From Candidatus Latescibacterota bacterium (GTDB taxonomy: Bacteria > Latescibacterota > UBA2968), in the NCBI GenBank assembly GCA_965222605.1, contig OZ244960.1:4704001-4768000 (forward strand): a stretch of 64,000 nucleotides of DNA, written 5' to 3'. Under the pieces are notes generated by a model. The model saw only the letters and a list, made by a program, of their open reading frames with translations. It was not told where the DNA came from and searched no databases. A program made the translations under genes and the position numbers. This document shows, one piece after another, positions 44,602 to 50,167 of the stretch (position 1 is its first letter; each line of letters begins with the position of its first letter).

Positions 44602-46413
44602 ATGAACAAAGAATCGGGAACACTTGAAGAATTGCTGAACACACGCGTGGTTCTTGAACTGAAGAAGCTCGCGCGTTTGTTAACCGGCGTGAAACTGCCC
44701 ACGCGCAAGGCGGATATTATTGCTATTATTGTGCATGAGATGACCGAATACACACGCGATTATTGGGATATGCTGGATGATCTGCAACAAAAAGCCGTGG
44801 CAGAAGCACTTTACGCGCCGTGGTTTGACGAAGAAGGATTTTGCGCCAAATATGGCGCAGAGCCAGATTGGGGAGATACGCCCCGTTGGTCCCAATATAT
44901 TCATGAGCCATCGCTGCTCAACCTGTTTATTCTAAGTGGCAGCCGCTATGGTTATTACGGCGGTCAAAAGGTGGTGCCCGATGATTTGAAAGTTATATTA
45001 AAAAAATTTGTGCCCAGGTCGCCGCCTGCAAAATTGTGCGTTGAAACAGAACGCCCGGAACATGTAGAAATTCCCCAGTATAATTTTTTGACGAGTAAAG
45101 AAAAAATAAAACAAATTCCGCTTTATCACGCCGATACCGAGCAAACAGCACAGGAAGATCTGGTGTCGGTATTGCGGTTGGTTGATGCGGGAAAAGTGCG
45201 GGTGAGTGAGCGCACCGGACGGCCATCAGCAGCCACTGTTCGCATCATTGGCGAGGCCCTTTGGGGTGGTGATTTTTATCCAGACCGCGAAAAGCGCGAC
45301 AAATGGGAAGAATTGCCGGGACCGATTAAAGCTCATGCGTGGCCGATGCTAATTCACGCGGCAAAGTTGGTGCGTTTGAAAAGCGGCAAGTTGCACTTGA
45401 CGCCTGCGGGGCGAAAGGCATTGGCCGCGCCACCTCACGAAATAATTAAGACGCTGTGGCAGGTGTGGCTCAAAAATGCAAAGACAGATGAGTTGCAACG
45501 GGTAAGTGCCATTCGCGGGCAGACCACTGTGGATGGGAAATCGGGCCTGACATCTCCGGTAAAGCGACGCGATGTGATTGTCAAAGCACTCAGAGCATGC
45601 CCTGTCGAAAAGTGGTTCGGTTTTGATGCCTTTTGCAATTTTATGCGTGCGGCGAGCTATTTGCTAATTGTGTCAGATGAGCCGTGGGAACTTTATATTC
45701 AAGATGAGTATGGGCATTTGACCGATGGCTGGGGGTTGTTGGCTTCTCAATATACACAGGTCTTGCTTTTTGAATATGCCGCGACATTGGGGCTTATAGA
45801 TGTGGCCTATATCGATCCGGTGGATGCGCCCTTAGATGTAGATTCCGCGCCAGATATTGATTTTTTAAGTCGCTATGATGGGTTGATGTATTTGCGTATC
45901 AATGCGTTGGGGGCTTTTGGTTTGGGGCGGAAGCGGTCTTATAAGCCTTCGAAAGTGGAGATTGAACATGTGCTCAAAGTGTTGCCCAATTTCGATGTGG
46001 TCGCATTCAAGCCCTTGCCTTTGGGCGATCAACTTGCACTGGAACAATTCGCCGACAAGACTGCTGACAGCGTGTGGACCATTCGGCCCGAACGGATGCT
46101 CAAAGGTCTGGAGAGTGGGCAATCACTCGACCACATGCAGTCATTTCTGAAGCACAAAAGCGGTGAGGATTTGCCTCAGCCTGTGGCTGTGCTATTTGAC
46201 GATATGGCCGATAAAGTATCGCGTTTGAGTGCGAAAGGCACGGCGCATTTGGTTGAGGTGACAGATGCTGAGACCGCACAGTTTCTCGCACATGACCGAG
46301 GCGTGAGCAAACACTGCTATCTGGCCGGTGACCGCCAACTTGTCGTGCCGGAAAAATCTCTGACAGCATTTCGCAATGCACTGAGGAAAATTGGATATAT
46401 ATTGCCGAAGTGA
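44602..46413 (+). CDS. Helicase-associated domain protein (XPB-partner / Helicase_C_3-like)
   Basis: C-terminal VLPNFDV...LEQFAD...FLKHKSGEDLPQPV...FRNALRKIGY pattern; no Walker motifs. Confidence 0.7.
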   Translation: MNKESGTLEELLNTRVVLELKKLARLLTGVKLPTRKADIIAIIVHEMTEYTRDYWDMLDDLQQKAVAEALYAPWFDEEGFCAKYGAEPDWGDTPRWSQYIHEPSLLNLFILSGSRYGYYGGQKVVPDDLKVILKKFVPRSPPAKLCVETERPEHVEIPQYNFLTSKEKIKQIPLYHADTEQTAQEDLVSVLRLVDAGKVRVSERTGRPSAATVRIIGEALWGGDFYPDREKRDKWEELPGPIKAHAWPMLIHAAKLVRLKSGKLHLTPAGRKALAAPPHEIIKTLWQVWLKNAKTDELQRVSAIRGQTTVDGKSGLTSPVKRRDVIVKALRACPVEKWFGFDAFCNFMRAASYLLIVSDEPWELYIQDEYGHLTDGWGLLASQYTQVLLFEYAATLGLIDVAYIDPVDAPLDVDSAPDIDFLSRYDGLMYLRINALGAFGLGRKRSYKPSKVEIEHVLKVLPNFDVVAFKPLPLGDQLALEQFADKTADSVWTIRPERMLKGLESGQSLDHMQSFLKHKSGEDLPQPVAVLFDDMADKVSRLSAKGTAHLVEVTDAETAQFLAHDRGVSKHCYLAGDRQLVVPEKSLTAFRNALRKIGYILPK

Positions 46414-46459: not shown

Positions 46460-46780
46460 ATGAATGTAAAAATAAAATCTGTTCTCGATATATTGCGTCA
46501 TCAATTTGAAATACTTTATGGTGATCGACTGGCGCACATGGTTTTATTTGGTTCGCGTGCCCGCGGCGATGCAGAATCCGATTCAGATATTGATGTGCTT
46601 GTTGTATTCCATGGACCTGTAAATGCTGGTGAGGAAATCAAGCGAACCGGTGGGATTGTGTCCGATCTTTGTTTAGAATATGAAGTAGTGATCAGTTGTG
46701 TGTTCATGGATCGCTATCGCTATAAAAACAAACAAGGACCACTACTTCGAAATATCCGCAAAGAAGGCGTTGCGTTATGA
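46460..46780 (+). CDS. Minimal nucleotidyltransferase (MNT/MntA-type antitoxin), orphan
   Basis: LFGSRARGDAESDSDIDVLVV and terminal NIRKEGVAL. Confidence 0.9.
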   Translation: MNVKIKSVLDILRHQFEILYGDRLAHMVLFGSRARGDAESDSDIDVLVVFHGPVNAGEEIKRTGGIVSDLCLEYEVVISCVFMDRYRYKNKQGPLLRNIRKEGVAL

Positions 46781-46793
46781 AGGAGGTATAGAC

Positions 46794-47825
46794 ATGACAT
46801 TTCCAGGATCAGAATGGGAGATGAGACCGCCCGGCGATCTCGGGTTTGACGGGGAGAAACTCGCACGGGTGCAGAGGTGGCTGCTCGAGGTGGCGGGTGA
46901 CAGGCCCTTTCAGGTGGGGATTGCGCGTTACGGGTATCTCGCAGCAGAGTGGCGGCAAGGTGTCGCGGCGGATTCGATGCACTCGCAGGCGTCTGCAGCA
47001 AAGTCGTATTATTCGACGCTTCTGGGCATTGTGGTAGCGGAAGGCAAGTTGTCTTCGCCAGATGAAAGAGTTGTTGATTACTTCCCTGAGATGATGGATG
47101 TGGGGGAGCAGGAGGGTCCAAAGCCCGGGCGGTATGCGTTTGAAAAAGATCGCGATGTTACCTTTCGACATTTGATATGCAATGTGTCGGGCTATATGAA
47201 GCCGGGGGAGAAACCGGGCGAGGTTTTTCACTATCAGACTTATGGGATGAATATTCTCACCCACGCAATGGCTAAAATTTACGGGTGTTACGATGCAAAT
47301 GATCCCGAGGGTTCACCGGGATGTGGGAAGGTGATAGGAGAAAAGTTGCGCGATCCAATTCGCGGGACCTGGACGCATTCGCATTCCAATTTTGATCTGT
47401 GGCCCAGTGCGAGATTAAATATCTTCGGGTATTACACGCAGGTGCATACCACATTGCGAGATCAATTGCGGGTGGGACATTTGTGGGGCAATTACGGCAA
47501 TTGGAATGGGGTTCAGGTTGCGCCGGAAAATTACTTGCGCGAGGCAACGGTGACGAATGATTTTATTCTGGAAAACGAACCCGAAGAGAACTGGAAATAC
47601 GGGCACGGGTTCTGGTGCAATGACCGCGGGATGCAGTGGAAAGATGCACCGAGAGACTCTTTTGCCGCATCGGGCGCAGGTGCGAAGCATATTTGGATGT
47701 GCCCGCGATTGGGGCTGGTCATCGCGCAAAATCCAGGGCTGTGGGATCAGTTCAGGGAAGAGCAAGATAAGATCGGGAGCCAGAATGAGGTGATTGCGCG
47801 AATTGTGAATGCGGTGAAAGAATAG
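46794..47825 (+). CDS. Serine hydrolase, beta-lactamase/NylB family
   Basis: SAAK (SxxK), TFRHL, PGEVFHY and YGHGFW motifs; AGGAGG RBS. Confidence 0.85.
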   Translation: MTFPGSEWEMRPPGDLGFDGEKLARVQRWLLEVAGDRPFQVGIARYGYLAAEWRQGVAADSMHSQASAAKSYYSTLLGIVVAEGKLSSPDERVVDYFPEMMDVGEQEGPKPGRYAFEKDRDVTFRHLICNVSGYMKPGEKPGEVFHYQTYGMNILTHAMAKIYGCYDANDPEGSPGCGKVIGEKLRDPIRGTWTHSHSNFDLWPSARLNIFGYYTQVHTTLRDQLRVGHLWGNYGNWNGVQVAPENYLREATVTNDFILENEPEENWKYGHGFWCNDRGMQWKDAPRDSFAASGAGAKHIWMCPRLGLVIAQNPGLWDQFREEQDKIGSQNEVIARIVNAVKE

Positions 47826-47838
47826 AGAGGAGCCAAAG

Positions 47839-49161
47839 ATGGATGCAAAAACCAAAAAATTACAGGTCGATCAGGCTGTGAAATCTCAATCGCGGCGGGC
47901 GTTTAATCTGTCGCGGAGTATTCACGGCTGGGCTGAGCGACCGTTTCAGGAATACGAGTCGTCGAAGGCATTGGCGGCGTATTTGGAGGAAAACGGATTT
48001 CAAATTGAATTTCCGTTCAAAAATATCCCGACGGCTTTTCGCGCTATATGGGGCACGGGCAAACCCACTATTGGCATGTTGGGCGAGTACGATGCATTGC
48101 CCAATTGCGGTGCCGAGGAGGGTACCTGGGGCCACGGCTGAGGTCACAATCTTTTGGGCGTTGCCCCGGCCGCAGGTGCGGTTGCTGCAAAAACAGTGTT
48201 GGAAAATTTGAATTCGCCCGGCCAGATCATTTATTATGGCTGTCCGGCTGAAGAAACCCTGGCGGGCAAGGTGTATATGGCCCGCGATGGCGCGTTTCGA
48301 GATTTGGATGCGGTGCTGGCATGGCATCCGGGATCGAGTACGGGCGTCAACAATTATGGCGGCTCGTCACTGGATTCGCTGGTCTATGAGTTTTTTGGCA
48401 AGACGTCTCACGGCGCGAGTGCTCACAATGGGCGCAGTGCATTGGATGGGGTGATGTTGATGGATGTTGCGGCGAATTATTTGCGCGAGCACGTTCCCGA
48501 AAATGTGCGTATCCACTGCGTGATTCGAGAGGGTGGGGACGCGCCCAATGTGGTTCCTGCCTATGCGAAGGTGTGGTACTATGTGCGGGGGAAGGATCGC
48601 GCACAGGTCAATGAGATACGCAAGCGATTGACCAAATGCGCTAAGGGTGCGGCGATAGCCACGGAGACGACTATGAAATGGCATCGGATTACGGCAGTGT
48701 ACCCGCGCTTACCAAATGATGTCATGTGCAAAGCCGTGAGCCAAAATCTCAAATTATTCGGCCCGCCGCGCGCGTCGAAAAAAGATAAGGAACGGGTGCA
48801 GGCACTGGGATACAAAGGTGAATTTGACGGAAAGATCAAAAAGGGCAAGGGGTCACAGGGGCGCGGGTCTTCGGATGAAGACAATGTGTCGTGGCTGGCA
48901 CCGATGGGTCGGTTTCAGATGGTGTGTTATACTAAAGACACGCCGGGCCATCACCGCGATATGACCGCACAGGCGGTAATGCCTTATGCCGAGCGCGCGG
49001 TTTTGCAAACGGCCAAGGTGTTTGCCGGGTCGGCTATTGATCTGATTTTGGATAAAAAGTTGTTACAAGCAGCGCGTGCGGAATTTAAGAAGGGGACGAA
49101 GGGGTTTAATTACGATCCGCTGATTAAAAAAAATCAGAAGGTCCCCGTTGACCCTCCGTAG
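47839..49161 (+). CDS. M20D amidohydrolase (AbgB-like), 440 aa with in-frame TGA at codon 101 (probable selenocysteine)
   Basis: ORFs 47839-48141 and 48154-49161 are in the same frame. Read-through gives GEYDALP...WGHG[TGA]GHNLLG...GCPAEE...WHP...GRSALD...APNVVP, with TGA at the H-x-C-G-H Cys position. Confidence 0.85.
48161..48190 (+). promoter_or_regulatory. Candidate bacterial SECIS hairpin
   Basis: TTGC-cc-CGGCCGC-[AGGT]-GCGGTTG-ct-GCAA, starting 20 nt after the in-frame TGA. Confidence 0.55.
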
Positions 49162-49174
49162 AAGGAGAAAAGAT

Positions 49175-50167
49175 ATGAAAGCAGAAAGATTAATATGTAC
49201 AGATATCCGGCGGATTGAATTGGAGAGCTTTGATTTGCCGCGCGTGCCAAACCACGGTGTTTTGGTGCAAAACGATTATACCGCTGTGAGCGTTGGCACG
49301 GAAATTTACAATTATGCACACGGGGGTGAACCGTCGCGTGCGAGAACATTTCCGCAGCCAACGGGATATTGCAACACGGGTGTGGTGCTCGAGGTGGGCA
49401 AAGATGTGAAGGGGATCAAACCCGGTGATCGCATTGCCGCGCAGGGCAATCACGCCAGTCATGCGGTCATAAGCGGGAATTTTTTCAAAGCTCCTGAAGG
49501 CGTTTCGCCCAGGTCCGCTGCTTTTATGGTTATGTGTGCTATTGCCATGCACGGGCACCGGGTTGGTCGTCCAGAATTGGGCGAGGCTGTGGCAATTACT
49601 GGTATGGGTATTGTGGGGCAATTGGCAGCGACCTTTGCGCGGCTGGCTGGCGCGCTCCCGGTTATTGCGATTGATCTGGATGATTTCCGGTTGGGTAAAG
49701 CCGGGGACCGGGGGGCAGATGTTTGTATTAATCCCAATGCTGAAGGGGATGTCGCCGAAGCATTGCGCCAGCATTGCGTGGGAGATGGTGCCGATCTGGT
49801 CGTTGAAGCAACGGGCATTTCCTCAGTTTATCCCATGGCGTTGACCTTGCCGCGGTTGGGTGGCCGTCTGGTCGCGCTGGGATCTCCACGGGGTACTGTG
49901 GAAGTGAGTTTTTTGCCCGAGATTCACTTGCGCGAGATCACGATTCTGGGCGCGCACCAGCCCAAAACGCCGGATAATGACCATATTTATTATCCCTGGA
50001 GCAAGCGCAGAGATCGCGAGTTGGTTTTGCGTTTGATGGCTGCGGGCAAATTGCCCATTGAAGATTTAATTACCCATGTCGCCAATCCCGCCGATTGCCA
50101 GGCCACCTACGACATGCTCGCCGATAATCCGAGAGAAGTGTTGGGGGTGGTATTTGAATGGGCGTGA
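49175..50167 (+). CDS. Zn-binding/MDR-family dehydrogenase
   Basis: VSVGTE, GYCNTGVV, GMGIVG and VEATG motifs; AAGGAG RBS. Confidence 0.9.
   Translation: MKAERLICTDIRRIELESFDLPRVPNHGVLVQNDYTAVSVGTEIYNYAHGGEPSRARTFPQPTGYCNTGVVLEVGKDVKGIKPGDRIAAQGNHASHAVISGNFFKAPEGVSPRSAAFMVMCAIAMHGHRVGRPELGEAVAITGMGIVGQLAATFARLAGALPVIAIDLDDFRLGKAGDRGADVCINPNAEGDVAEALRQHCVGDGADLVVEATGISSVYPMALTLPRLGGRLVALGSPRGTVEVSFLPEIHLREITILGAHQPKTPDNDHIYYPWSKRRDRELVLRLMAAGKLPIEDLITHVANPADCQATYDMLADNPREVLGVVFEWA

Follow-up and report, generated by a model that had tools for sequence, protein, structure and literature searches.

Among described enzymes, the closest counterparts of the protein considered here belong to the Acy1L2/AbgB branch of the M20D family, namely HmrA of Staphylococcus aureus (3RAM) and human PM20D2 (7YH4, 8ZEL), which match it by sequence at E-values of 1.5e-40 and 2e-39, respectively. 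The three proteins have in common the G-H-x-C-G-H-N motif and a catalytic domain with an inserted dimerisation domain, but HmrA and PM20D2 carry Cys where the gene under study has UGA, share only 26–27 % identity with its product, and are without the 7-residue loop that bears Cys90 of that product. HmrA acts on Met-X dipeptides, according to the part of PMC9486568 that was available, and PM20D2 is a beta-alanyl-lysine or Xaa-Arg dipeptidase (beta-Ala-Lys in the titles of the PDB entries); neither substrate has been shown for the present protein. The Cys of the M20D motif H-x-C-G-H is described as bridging two zinc ions in a review sentence on CsAga (PMC11511702, available in part). Sapep was considered as a further Cys-bridged M20D example and dropped, since the accessible part of PMC2937973 presents the enzyme as PepV-like, with no cysteine among its active-site residues. 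Escherichia coli AbgB, to which the present protein is about as close as it is to HmrA and PM20D2, aligns over the full length with 34 % identity (E 2e-80) and has an identical GHGCGHNLLG segment, encoded with Cys and not UGA. The E. coli gene belongs to an abgA-abgB-abgT locus, whereas the M20 gene studied here is flanked by genes of the beta-lactamase and zinc-type alcohol dehydrogenase families; abgA and abgT partners are absent beside it, as judged at this locus only, and E. coli AbgA matches the protein only at E 4e-4.

Selenocysteine (Sec) ligates the metal in [NiFeSe] hydrogenase (Ni) and in formate dehydrogenase (Mo/W). A metal-binding Sec has also been predicted for SaoB, SaoP and SaoL (bioRxiv 10.1101/2022.07.06.499078, of which part was available). 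In each of these enzymes a selenolate replaces a thiolate as metal ligand, as is proposed for the present protein, but their metals serve redox or organometallic chemistry, whereas the site considered here would be a di-metal centre for Lewis-acid water activation, with Sec as the bridging ligand. The first-pass annotation of this DNA had proposed Sec as a metal ligand in a hydrolase; Sec-metal ligation itself is not new, and what remains new, within the searched literature, is its occurrence in a hydrolase. SelD, peroxiredoxins and formate dehydrogenase share with the present case an in-frame UGA where Cys is otherwise conserved, relatives with Cys, the selABCD genes and a hairpin just downstream of the UGA, which in the present gene is only predicted; these are the criteria of published selenoprotein searches (deep-Sep, PMC12013277, available in part). 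The enzyme described here differs from the known bacterial selenoproteins of such Sec/Cys pairs in that it is predicted to be hydrolytic and not redox-active. No M20, amidohydrolase, peptidase or hydrolase selenoprotein was found in the available main texts of PMC13188914, PMC13326102, PMC12013277, PMC9312934, PMC2398784, PMC1976440, PMC5029168 and bioRxiv 10.1101/2022.07.06.499078, the supplements of deep-Sep, BSepDB and GOS, whose tables could list the family, being excluded.

The gene lies in a window of 64,000 nucleotides, the whole stretch of DNA that was analysed, taken from a Candidatus Latescibacterota genome that consists of one 6.34-Mb contig. Translation of positions 47839–49161 on the forward strand gives a single frame of 440 sense positions followed by a terminal TAG at 49159–49161, and its sole internal stop is a TGA at codon 101, in the context GGC CAC GGC TGA GGT CAC AAT CTT TTG (G-H-G-*-G-H-N-L-L, preceded by W). 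The features discussed below are as follows, in window coordinates.

46698..47825, + strand: upstream neighbour, a beta-lactamase-family serine hydrolase (Pfam PF00144, E 6.9e-14), ending 13 nt before the start of the M20 gene.
47827..47832, + strand: Shine-Dalgarno-like GAGGAG, 6 nt before the ATG of the M20 gene, read from the sequence.
47839..49161, + strand: whole coding sequence of the predicted Sec-containing M20D amidohydrolase of AbgB/HmrA/PM20D2 type, 440 residues, TAG included (single frame, TIGR01891, AF2, Foldseek).
48139..48141, + strand: UGA, predicted Sec codon 101, at the invariant Cys of H-x-C-G-H (TGA conserved in orthologues, Cys in homologues).
48154..48184, + strand: predicted SECIS region with frozen synonymous sites, about codons 106–115 (third-position entropy).
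48156..48166, + strand: hairpin H1, GGGC[GUU]GCCC, starting 14 nt after the UGA, pairs invariant.
48167..48184, + strand: hairpin H2, CGGCCGC[AGGU]GCGGUUG, a 7-bp stem with a GG-containing loop (pairing conserved; likeness to the selD hairpin).
49175..50167, + strand: downstream neighbour of the zinc-type alcohol dehydrogenase family (Pfam ADH_zinc_N and ADH_N), starting 14 nt after the M20 stop; every NCBIfam match is below its cut-off.

Mechanical gene calling divides the M20 gene into two open reading frames, 47839–48141 (100 aa, ATG) and 48154–49161 (335 aa, TTG). The first-pass annotation had read these as one frame broken only by the TGA, with both halves intact, and retranslation agrees; all five motifs that it named are present in the translation (GEYDALP at residues 82–88, GCPAEE at 134–139, WHP at 162–164, GRSALD at 198–203 and GHH at 370–372). 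The adjacency of the M20 and beta-lactamase-family genes is conserved only inside the genus, and that of the M20 and alcohol dehydrogenase genes mainly so; the neighbourhood is therefore a weak clue to the substrate.

The protein scores 197.2 bits against TIGR01891 (cut-off 153.75) and 30.4 bits against Pfam M20_dimer (cut-off 21), while the Pfam Peptidase_M20 model gives no match at E 0.001. The TIGR01891 score, together with the identity to E. coli AbgB, bears out the earlier assignment as an AbgB-like M20D protein, and the JGI name for Cys-type homologues is 'aminobenzoyl-glutamate utilization protein B'. An AF2 model (pLDDT 94.2, pTM 0.92) has a two-domain fold, with a catalytic domain and an inserted dimerisation domain, and its top Foldseek matches are all M20D structures, among them HmrA (3ram_A, TM 0.82/0.92, rmsd 2.0 A) and PM20D2 (8zel, E 6.5e-36); CsAga (6slf) is also matched in fold (E 2.9e-23). 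The residues H99, (U/C)101, H103, E138, E139, H163, H371 and H372 are invariant in all 47 Sec-type proteins, and all are invariant columns of the alignment A2. We take His103, Glu139, His163 and His371/372 to be the expected metal ligands and Glu138 to be the general base, by inference. Residue 101 aligns with the Cys of HmrA, PM20D2 and ILL2, which supports the earlier view that the UGA stands at the metal-bridging Cys, to the extent possible without a structure of the protein itself.

The internal TGA is widely shared. Among 52 matching relatives, 49 have an M20 orthologue with exactly one TGA, and in all 49, checked codon by codon and down to 70 % protein identity, it is codon 101, an agreement far beyond chance. 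Across the phylum, an orthologue with exactly one TGA occurs in 55 of 168 genomes, counted at species level and distributed over three families, and the TGA form is also found in 2 metagenome contigs. Among more distant homologues for which DNA was readable, the codon is TGC or TGT in 50 of 80 loci from genomes, none of them above 66 % identity, and in 57 of 59 from metagenomes, at no more than 70 %. The TGA is not peculiar to this assembly; a TGA confined to it would have told against the first-pass reading. At the protein level, the motif is matched by 84 of the best 120 proteins listed, all with C at the place of residue 101, and C101, H99 and H103 are invariant in all 60 rows of A2. Sec and Cys forms reach 83 % identity to one another; the nested Cys forms are P0002–P0004, of which P0002 stands at about that level. 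The gene is exactly 1323 nt long in 47 of 49 cases, 203 of the 440 positions are invariant among the 47 Sec-type proteins, and selection is not relaxed beyond the TGA, as the median dN/dS is 0.070 on the upstream side, from 21 pairs, and 0.089 on the downstream side, from 20. Contigs from an independent DNA run and from two RNA-library runs span codon 101, with no difference at 48139–48141 among those listed; the runs are stored as contigs, the best-matching one, X1, contributes only a single short piece, and 10 further differences lie outside those listed. Such contigs can attest presence only, and those from RNA libraries are no proof of transcription. In the explanation that we prefer, the Sec form was derived from a Cys form within the Latescibacterota, with Sec/Cys exchange more than once.

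If Sec is inserted at codon 101, it need not be a metal ligand, or not only that: it could form a reversible selenenylsulfide with Cys90 or Cys135 and serve as a redox switch for the metal site, turning it on or off, or shield that site from irreversible oxidation. Known selenoproteins are mostly redox proteins, according to the parts of PMC9312934 and PMC13188914 that were available, and both partner cysteines, Cys90 in its subfamily-specific loop and Cys135 in GCPAEE, are invariant in the 47 Sec-type proteins. In A2, Cys90 is likewise invariant and Cys135 occurs in at least 90 % of the rows, and the Cys90 loop is an alignment gap in HmrA and PM20D2. Yet the two cysteines are equally conserved in the Cys-type enzymes and hence are not tied to Sec, and all the other expected metal ligands have been retained. 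We consider such a switch unlikely, although it survives better than the other alternatives, and prefer Sec101 as a metal ligand; granted that residue 101 is Sec, this role is likely, and we hold it with good confidence, on homology alone and with no structure to support it.

The source genome is equipped for Sec insertion. The first-pass annotation had named selA, selB, selC and selD as genes to be sought, and all four are present above curated cut-offs: selA (576 bits) with selB adjacent (387.7 bits), a tRNA-Sec gene (selC; 73.3 bits, with the gathering score at 47, called tRNA-SeC (tca) by ARAGORN), and, adjoining the latter, a selD (365 bits) that has an in-frame TGA of its own and is itself Sec-containing. 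In the wider sample, selA was detected in 48 of the 49 genomes with the TGA-form M20 gene, and was not found in G059, a genome that carries the Cys form. TGA terminates 477 of the 1161 open frames of at least 500 codons in the source genome, and the code has therefore not been reassigned. A crude genome-wide scan for further UGA read-throughs yielded 361 candidates, mostly noise, and missed selD, and so does not amount to a selenoproteome; four of its candidates were run against Pfam, of which L214 and L215 are AhpC/TSA genes, L216 belongs to no family, and L217 is a pair of adjacent genes.

The RNA just 3' of the UGA was examined for a SECIS-type signal. Folding stability alone is unexceptional, as the 81 nt after the UGA have a minimum free energy of -25.2 kcal/mol (z-score +0.47) and 140 of 200 shuffled sequences fold at least as well. 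Because stability is no better than in shuffled sequences, conservation at synonymous sites was used as the test instead. Third-position entropy is lowest in the eight-codon windows that start at codons 106 and 107, at 0.205 compared with a median of 1.212 over 433 windows. This synonymous freeze, at codons 106–114, is present only in TGA-bearing genes, and Cys-type homologues show free variation at these codons: Gly107 is GGC in all 41 Sec-type segments and is written with four codons in the Cys type, and Ala111 and Ala114 behave likewise. This SECIS-type signal, which the first-pass annotation could not see, also speaks for the selenoprotein reading.

Two adjacent hairpins can be placed on the frozen sites. 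In H1, all 4 pairs are invariant in the 42 distinct sequences, and in H2, 99.7 % of cells are paired, with G-C replaced by A-U at one pair in 3 sequences and C-G by U-G at another in 16. Together H1 and H2 are 99.8 % paired, against 35–63 % when the pairing is slid. H2 resembles the selD hairpin of the same genome, AUCCAGC[GGU]GCUGGAU, and hairpins with such GG-containing loops lie downstream of the UGA both in selD and in two AhpC/TSA genes of the source genome; these start 13–15 nt after the UGA, and H2 starts 25 nt after it. The element varies so little that it shows almost no covariation: only one pair of H1 and H2 has double changes, a score that 56 of 500 shuffles reach, and the structure given by RNAalifold has none. 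That structure is a long stem enclosing the UGA, mutually exclusive with H1 and H2 and 99.3 % paired, and since it pairs equally well the exact fold of the SECIS remains unsettled. We favour H1 and H2, as a judgement and not as a result, because they account for the lack of third-position variation at alignment columns 27, 30 and 45, all of which the long stem leaves unpaired, and because the GG-containing loop resembles those of the selD and AhpC/TSA hairpins. No Rfam family matches the SECIS region, where only chance-level scores were obtained. Of the two hairpins, H2 is most likely the SelB-binding element; that H1 serves as a folded spacer, or else as a SelB site, is an inference.

These observations also bear on the possibility that the UGA is decoded as one of the standard amino acids (Trp, Cys, Gly or Arg), whether under a reassigned code or through a suppressor or near-cognate tRNA. 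There are no protein data against it, and Cys is functional at position 101 in homologues. It is set against a genome in which TGA is a normal stop and the Sec machinery is complete, and against a synonymous freeze 3' of the codon that is confined to TGA genes, as SelB-dependent decoding predicts; moreover, a single mutation would give the Cys codon TGC, which relatives do use. We regard this reading as very unlikely, and decoding of UGA codon 101 as Sec as very probable, with the reservation that insertion is inferred in the absence of selenium labelling or of a peptide.

Termination at the UGA would leave a split or truncated gene, with a 100-residue N-terminal peptide, a separately initiated 335-residue protein, or both. 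The first-pass annotation had held that the downstream half has no ribosome-binding site of its own, and this is true only in part: in the source genome the TGA and the GG that follows it create a GAGG, which precedes the TTG at 48154 by 10 nt, but no start codon is conserved there, because among the 41 distinct Sec-type segments 24 have CTG at this codon and 17 have TTG. Public gene callers begin 335-aa fragments at this TTG (P0018 starts MGVAPAAG), and fragments of 294–336 aa make up 18 of 120 proteins listed, including P0018, with 217 member sequences, and P0121, which NCBI names 'peptidase dimerization domain-containing protein'. A protein begun at codon 106 would lack the opening strands of the catalytic domain as well as H99, residue 101 and H103, and the conservation of frame and length described above, as well as purifying selection on the first 100 codons equal to that on the remainder, also speak against separate products. 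A split gene is thus scarcely tenable, and the continuous Sec-containing frame is retained. When an in-frame stop appears in a lone assembly, the usual cause is a pseudogene or a mistake in assembly or sequencing, but with the TGA present in three families and in metagenome contigs, no difference listed for the codon in the three further runs, and dN/dS of about 0.07–0.09, this explanation is refuted as far as sequence data allow.

The material as a whole is probably best explained by a single gene whose product is a cytoplasmic M20D metallo-amidohydrolase or dipeptidase of 440 residues, with a metal-ligating Sec at UGA codon 101, a reading that we hold with fairly good confidence and for which there are no activity data. 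The first-pass annotation had likewise proposed a 440-aa selenoprotein, and every attempt at refutation that was made came out in its favour. By the standard bacterial pathway, which is inferred here, SelD would provide selenophosphate and SelA would convert Ser-tRNA-Sec to Sec-tRNA-Sec, which SelB-GTP would deliver on recognising the mRNA hairpin just 3' of the UGA. The recognition element would lie at 48154–48184 and would most likely be H2 at 48167–48184, with its RGGU loop, H1 at 48156–48166 acting as a small folded spacer. In the protein, Sec101 would substitute for the Cys of H-x-C-G-H; since that Cys is described as bridging both catalytic metal ions in M20D enzymes, the selenolate would ligate a hydrolytic, non-redox di-metal centre. 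The substrate may be a dipeptide or an N-acyl amino acid, which is a guess.

To our knowledge, Sec serves redox chemistry in almost every known selenoprotein, and the few with metal-bound Sec are also redox enzymes. We lean, with some reserve, towards seeing in the present protein the first selenoenzyme in the searched literature in which Sec bridges the di-metal centre of a hydrolase (a metallopeptidase or amidohydrolase), long kept in one Latescibacterota class with several exchanges for Cys, where selenium may tune Lewis acidity, metal choice or resistance to oxidation, and where a two-hairpin SECIS would use H1 as the spacer that sets the usual distance from the UGA. Since Sec and Cys forms as much as 83 % identical exist, the benefit of selenium can be tested directly, be it in metal preference, the pKa of the bridging ligand or resistance to oxidation. 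Public data mis-annotate the M20 gene as truncated fragments, with 217 member sequences in one fragment cluster, and the correction concerns a gene that roughly one in three of the Latescibacterota genomes sampled carries (55/168). If Sec does bridge the metals of a hydrolase, selenium would have been selected also to tune a Lewis-acid metal site.

Translation of positions 47839-49161 of the forward strand yields 440 sense positions in a single frame closed by TAG, and its sole interruption is the TGA codon at 48139-48141, flanked as G-H-G-(TGA)-G-H-N-L-L. A mechanical ORF listing gives a 100-aa ORF from the ATG at 47839, with GAGGAG 6 nt upstream, and a 335-aa ORF from a TTG at 48154. The first-pass annotation had regarded these as one frame interrupted by TGA alone, and the translation bears this out, while every protein motif that it listed is present in the read-through product. 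At present the TGA-containing form of this M20D amidohydrolase is annotated as C-terminal fragments. Among the best 120 entries in the protein database, 18 are such fragments (294-336 aa, 75-93 % identity); a single one of them comprises 217 member sequences, and another carries the NCBI name 'peptidase dimerization domain-containing protein [Candidatus Latescibacteria bacterium]'. The gene is flanked by a beta-lactamase-family serine hydrolase gene upstream and a Zn-ADH gene downstream, an arrangement kept within the genus only. Neither abgA nor abgT is adjacent among the neighbour genes examined, and the neighbours do not fix the substrate. A 603-aa ORF (44602-46413, forward strand) between an enolase-superfamily gene and the beta-lactamase-family gene is found upstream in some genus members only; it has a sub-threshold match to Pfam Helicase_C_3 and belongs to no NCBIfam family.

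The TGA is a conserved feature of the gene. When 61 related genomes were searched in all six frames, the gene was located in 52, with exactly one TGA in 49 and none in three. When all 49 TGA genes and the closest stop-free one were cut out, the TGA proved to be codon 101 in every one of the 49, inside W-G-H-G-(TGA)-G-H-N-L-L-G, with protein identity ranging between 100 % and 70 %; in genome G059, whose homologue is 66-67 % identical, the codon is TGC. Thus the TGA is not peculiar to this assembly, which would have counted against the selenoprotein proposed at first pass, and TGC or TGT occupies the codon in more distant homologues. Of the 168 genomes of the phylum, 59 give a match at E <= 1e-100; one TGA is present in 55 of these and no stop in four. 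The 55 belong to three families, with 31 (the genome studied here included), 18 and six members. Four MAG records, L096, L097, L100 (titled Gemmatimonadetes) and L101 (titled Planctomycetota), also carry the TGA form; L101 has contig coordinates identical to those of G116, a genome placed in the same phylum as ours, so that record titles and genome taxonomy disagree. Contigs of X3, an independent DNA run, cover codon 101 (a 2123-nt piece with six differences), as do contigs, about 96 % identical, of the metatranscriptome-library runs X15 and X16. Among the differences listed for these three runs, a listing that leaves out ten, there is a change at 48147 (His103 CAC to CAT) and none at 48139-48141. 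These are assembled contigs rather than raw reads, and those from RNA libraries are no proof of transcription. The X15 variant of 47839-49161 lies on one 6208-nt contig, and two small-share RNA runs (among X15, X16, X19 and X20) are labelled sponge metagenome, from which no habitat is claimed.

The segment downstream of the TGA is not decaying. Median dN/dS against the gene studied, calculated by NG86 from pairs with unsaturated dS only, is 0.070 upstream (codons 2-100, 21 pairs) and 0.089 downstream (codons 102-440, 20 pairs), and the relaxation that would have refuted the first-pass proposal is absent. In 47 distinct 440-aa proteins of the TGA form, 203 positions are invariant, 40 before the TGA and 162 after it.

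The genome, assembled as one contig of 6.34 Mb (completeness 98.7 %, contamination 5.4 %), contains all four of selA, selB, selC and selD. The tRNA-Sec scores 73.3 bits against a gathering score of 47 and is identified by ARAGORN as tRNA-SeC with anticodon tca. Its gene lies directly downstream of selD (365 bits), while selA (576 bits) adjoins selB (387.7 bits). Of 1161 open frames that are 500 codons long or longer, 477 end in TGA, which is therefore an ordinary stop, and a reassigned code is excluded. Among relatives, selA was found in 57 of 61, and in 48 of the 49 TGA-form genomes, the exception being G012 (91 % complete, 430 contigs). Neither the Cys-form genome G059 (86 % complete) nor its genus mate G055 yielded a selA. 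Since these genomes are related and incomplete, this co-occurrence counts as consistency rather than as a statistical test. Other in-frame UGA codons in the genome occur as follows:

G000:C1:3613020-3614142, selD (L009, L001), one in-frame TGA, adjoining the tRNA-Sec gene
G000:C1:2204259-2204693, forward strand, AhpC/TSA-family gene with in-frame TGA (L214)
G000:C1:113041-113610, reverse strand, AhpC/TSA-family gene with in-frame TGA (L215)
G000:C1:4309886-4312132, reverse strand, D-glutamate cyclase-domain ORF ending in TGA with a sulfatase continuing in frame (L217)

The selD of this genome, with its site S-C-G-G-(TGA)-A-S-K, is itself a selenoprotein gene. In the two AhpC/TSA genes the TGA falls at a peroxidatic-Cys position (T-G-G-(TGA)-T) in one and in a W-(TGA)-P-H-C motif in the other; each aligns to a Cys of paralogues in the same genome and has a hairpin 14-15 nt downstream. 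Both are probably further selenoproteins, a judgement from their sequences to which conservation in relatives does not contribute. L217 is read instead as two adjacent genes, without a comparison with relatives for the fused form.

Nucleotide conservation 3' of the UGA points to a recoding signal. In 8-codon windows, third-codon-position entropy reaches its minimum for the gene at codons 106-114 (0.205, the lowest of 433; median 1.212), a stretch that varies freely in Cys-type homologues encoding the same residues. Gly107 is GGC in all 41 distinct Sec-type segments, against GGC/GGT/GGG/GGA in 51/20/16/9 Cys-type ones; Ala111 is GCC in 41/41, against GCG/GCC/GCT/GCA in 10/9/2/1 of the 22 closest Cys-type segments; and Ala114 is GCG in 41/41 but mixed in the Cys type. 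We judge this control decisive: the synonymous freeze belongs to the TGA genes. Just 5' of the UGA, the Gly100 codon (48136-48138) is GGC in 37 of 41 Sec-type segments and any of four codons in the Cys type, which could be a recoding context effect or reflect pairing in the alternative long stem described below. Two hairpins can form within the frozen stretch, 48154-48184:

48156-48166, small hairpin H1, GGGC[GUU]GCCC
48167-48184, 7-bp hairpin H2 directly after H1, CGGCCGC[AGGU]GCGGUUG

Over 42 distinct sequences, 99.8 % of cells in these hairpins are paired, against 35-63 % with the 3' partners slid. One G-C pair becomes A-U in three sequences and one C-G becomes U-G in 16; compensatory changes are almost absent, and the covariation score is matched by 56 of 500 shuffles. 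An alternative long stem enclosing the UGA, mutually exclusive with H1 and H2, is 99.3 % paired with no double changes. The stability of the region after the UGA is unexceptional (z +0.47), no Rfam family matches the recoding region, and evidence for any exact predicted fold is weak. The loop of H2 resembles those after the UGA of selD (7-bp stem, GGU loop, starting 13 nt past the UGA) and of the two AhpC/TSA genes (6-7-bp stems, GG-containing loops, starting at 14-15 nt), but H2 starts at 25 nt, and H1 exactly occupies the extra 11 nt. H1 may thus be a folded spacer and H2 the SelB site, inferences without experimental or binding data.

Homologues with Cys at this position are widespread. In species-representative genomes, 80 homologous loci comprise 30 with TGA, none below 73 % identity, and 50 with TGC/TGT, none above 66 %, the latter in Verrucomicrobiota, Planctomycetota, Kiritimatiellia, Chloroflexota and others. 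A metagenome scan gave two TGA and 57 TGC/TGT among 59 loci, having used Cys-containing peptide patterns and hence being biased against TGA. When the tree is built from genome-derived sequences alone, the 56 Sec rows group in one clade (SH-aLRT 98). Unexpectedly, full-length Cys forms of up to 83 % identity exist (P0002-P0004), and with 48 metagenome proteins included, Cys forms fall within the Sec clade; five Sec/Cys changes are needed, at least three of them forced by well-supported branches. The nested full-length proteins, at 70-83 % identity, include P0002, P0003, P0004, P0010, P0013, P0015 and P0021. A single Sec clade is rejected by the AU test (p 0.0084), somewhat too strongly because the group was chosen after inspection of the tree. 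The nesting implies repeated Sec/Cys exchange, as is usual in selenoprotein families, and Cys at residue 101 is evidently functional.

The read-through protein matches NCBIfam TIGR01891 'amidohydrolases' at 197.2 bits (cut-off 153.75), and in Pfam, at default threshold, M20_dimer only. The closest solved structures by sequence are HmrA (3RAM, E 1.5e-40) and human PM20D2 (7YH4/8XZC, 2e-39), with ILL2, 4EWT and YxeP next, near 1e-7. Alignment with E. coli AbgB spans the full length at 34 % identity, and the GHGCGHNLLG of AbgB is the same; AbgA matches at E 4e-4 only. An AF2 model from 60 homologues (pLDDT 94.2, pTM 0.92) aligns structurally with HmrA at TM 0.82/0.92 (rmsd 2.0 A), and its fold matches include PM20D2 (E 6.5e-36) and the Corynebacterium N-acyl-glutamine aminoacylase 6SLF (2.9e-23). 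The N-terminus has no signal-peptide-like segment, residues 3-31 being helical in the model, so the enzyme is probably cytoplasmic. Residue 101 aligns to the Cys of G-H-A-C-G-H in HmrA, PM20D2 and ILL2, and together with H99, H103, E138, E139, H163, H371 and H372 it is invariant in 60/60 homologues and in 47/47 Sec-type proteins. A Cys that bridges two zinc ions is described for M20D enzymes in a review passage on CsAga (PMC11511702). The putative identity of residue 101 as this metal-bridging Cys, like the other ligand assignments, rests on homology and general knowledge of M20 enzymes and not on distances in the model.

A full-text literature search found no link of selenocysteine to M20, amidohydrolase, aminoacylase, dipeptidase or aminobenzoyl-glutamate enzymes. 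The terms amidohydrolase, M20, peptidase and hydrolase are absent from the main texts, though supplementary tables may differ, of a 2026 prokaryotic selenoproteome review (PMC13188914), BSepDB (PMC13326102), deep-Sep (PMC12013277), a 2022 review (PMC9312934), the GOS study (PMC2398784), the Olavius symbiont study (PMC1976440), a 2016 comparative study (PMC5029168) and the Haft preprint (10.1101/2022.07.06.499078). The deep-Sep study reports nine new selenoprotein families in 20 genomes (PMC12013277); new families are still found regularly, and one more is unsurprising in itself. By all standard computational criteria, and without selenium-incorporation data, the M20D gene is very probably a genuine, conserved and mis-annotated selenoprotein gene. 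Granted selenocysteine, it is likely, by inference, to serve as a metal ligand. The unusual part is the chemistry that this would imply, namely a di-metal hydrolase with selenocysteine where the Cys bridging the metals would otherwise stand.
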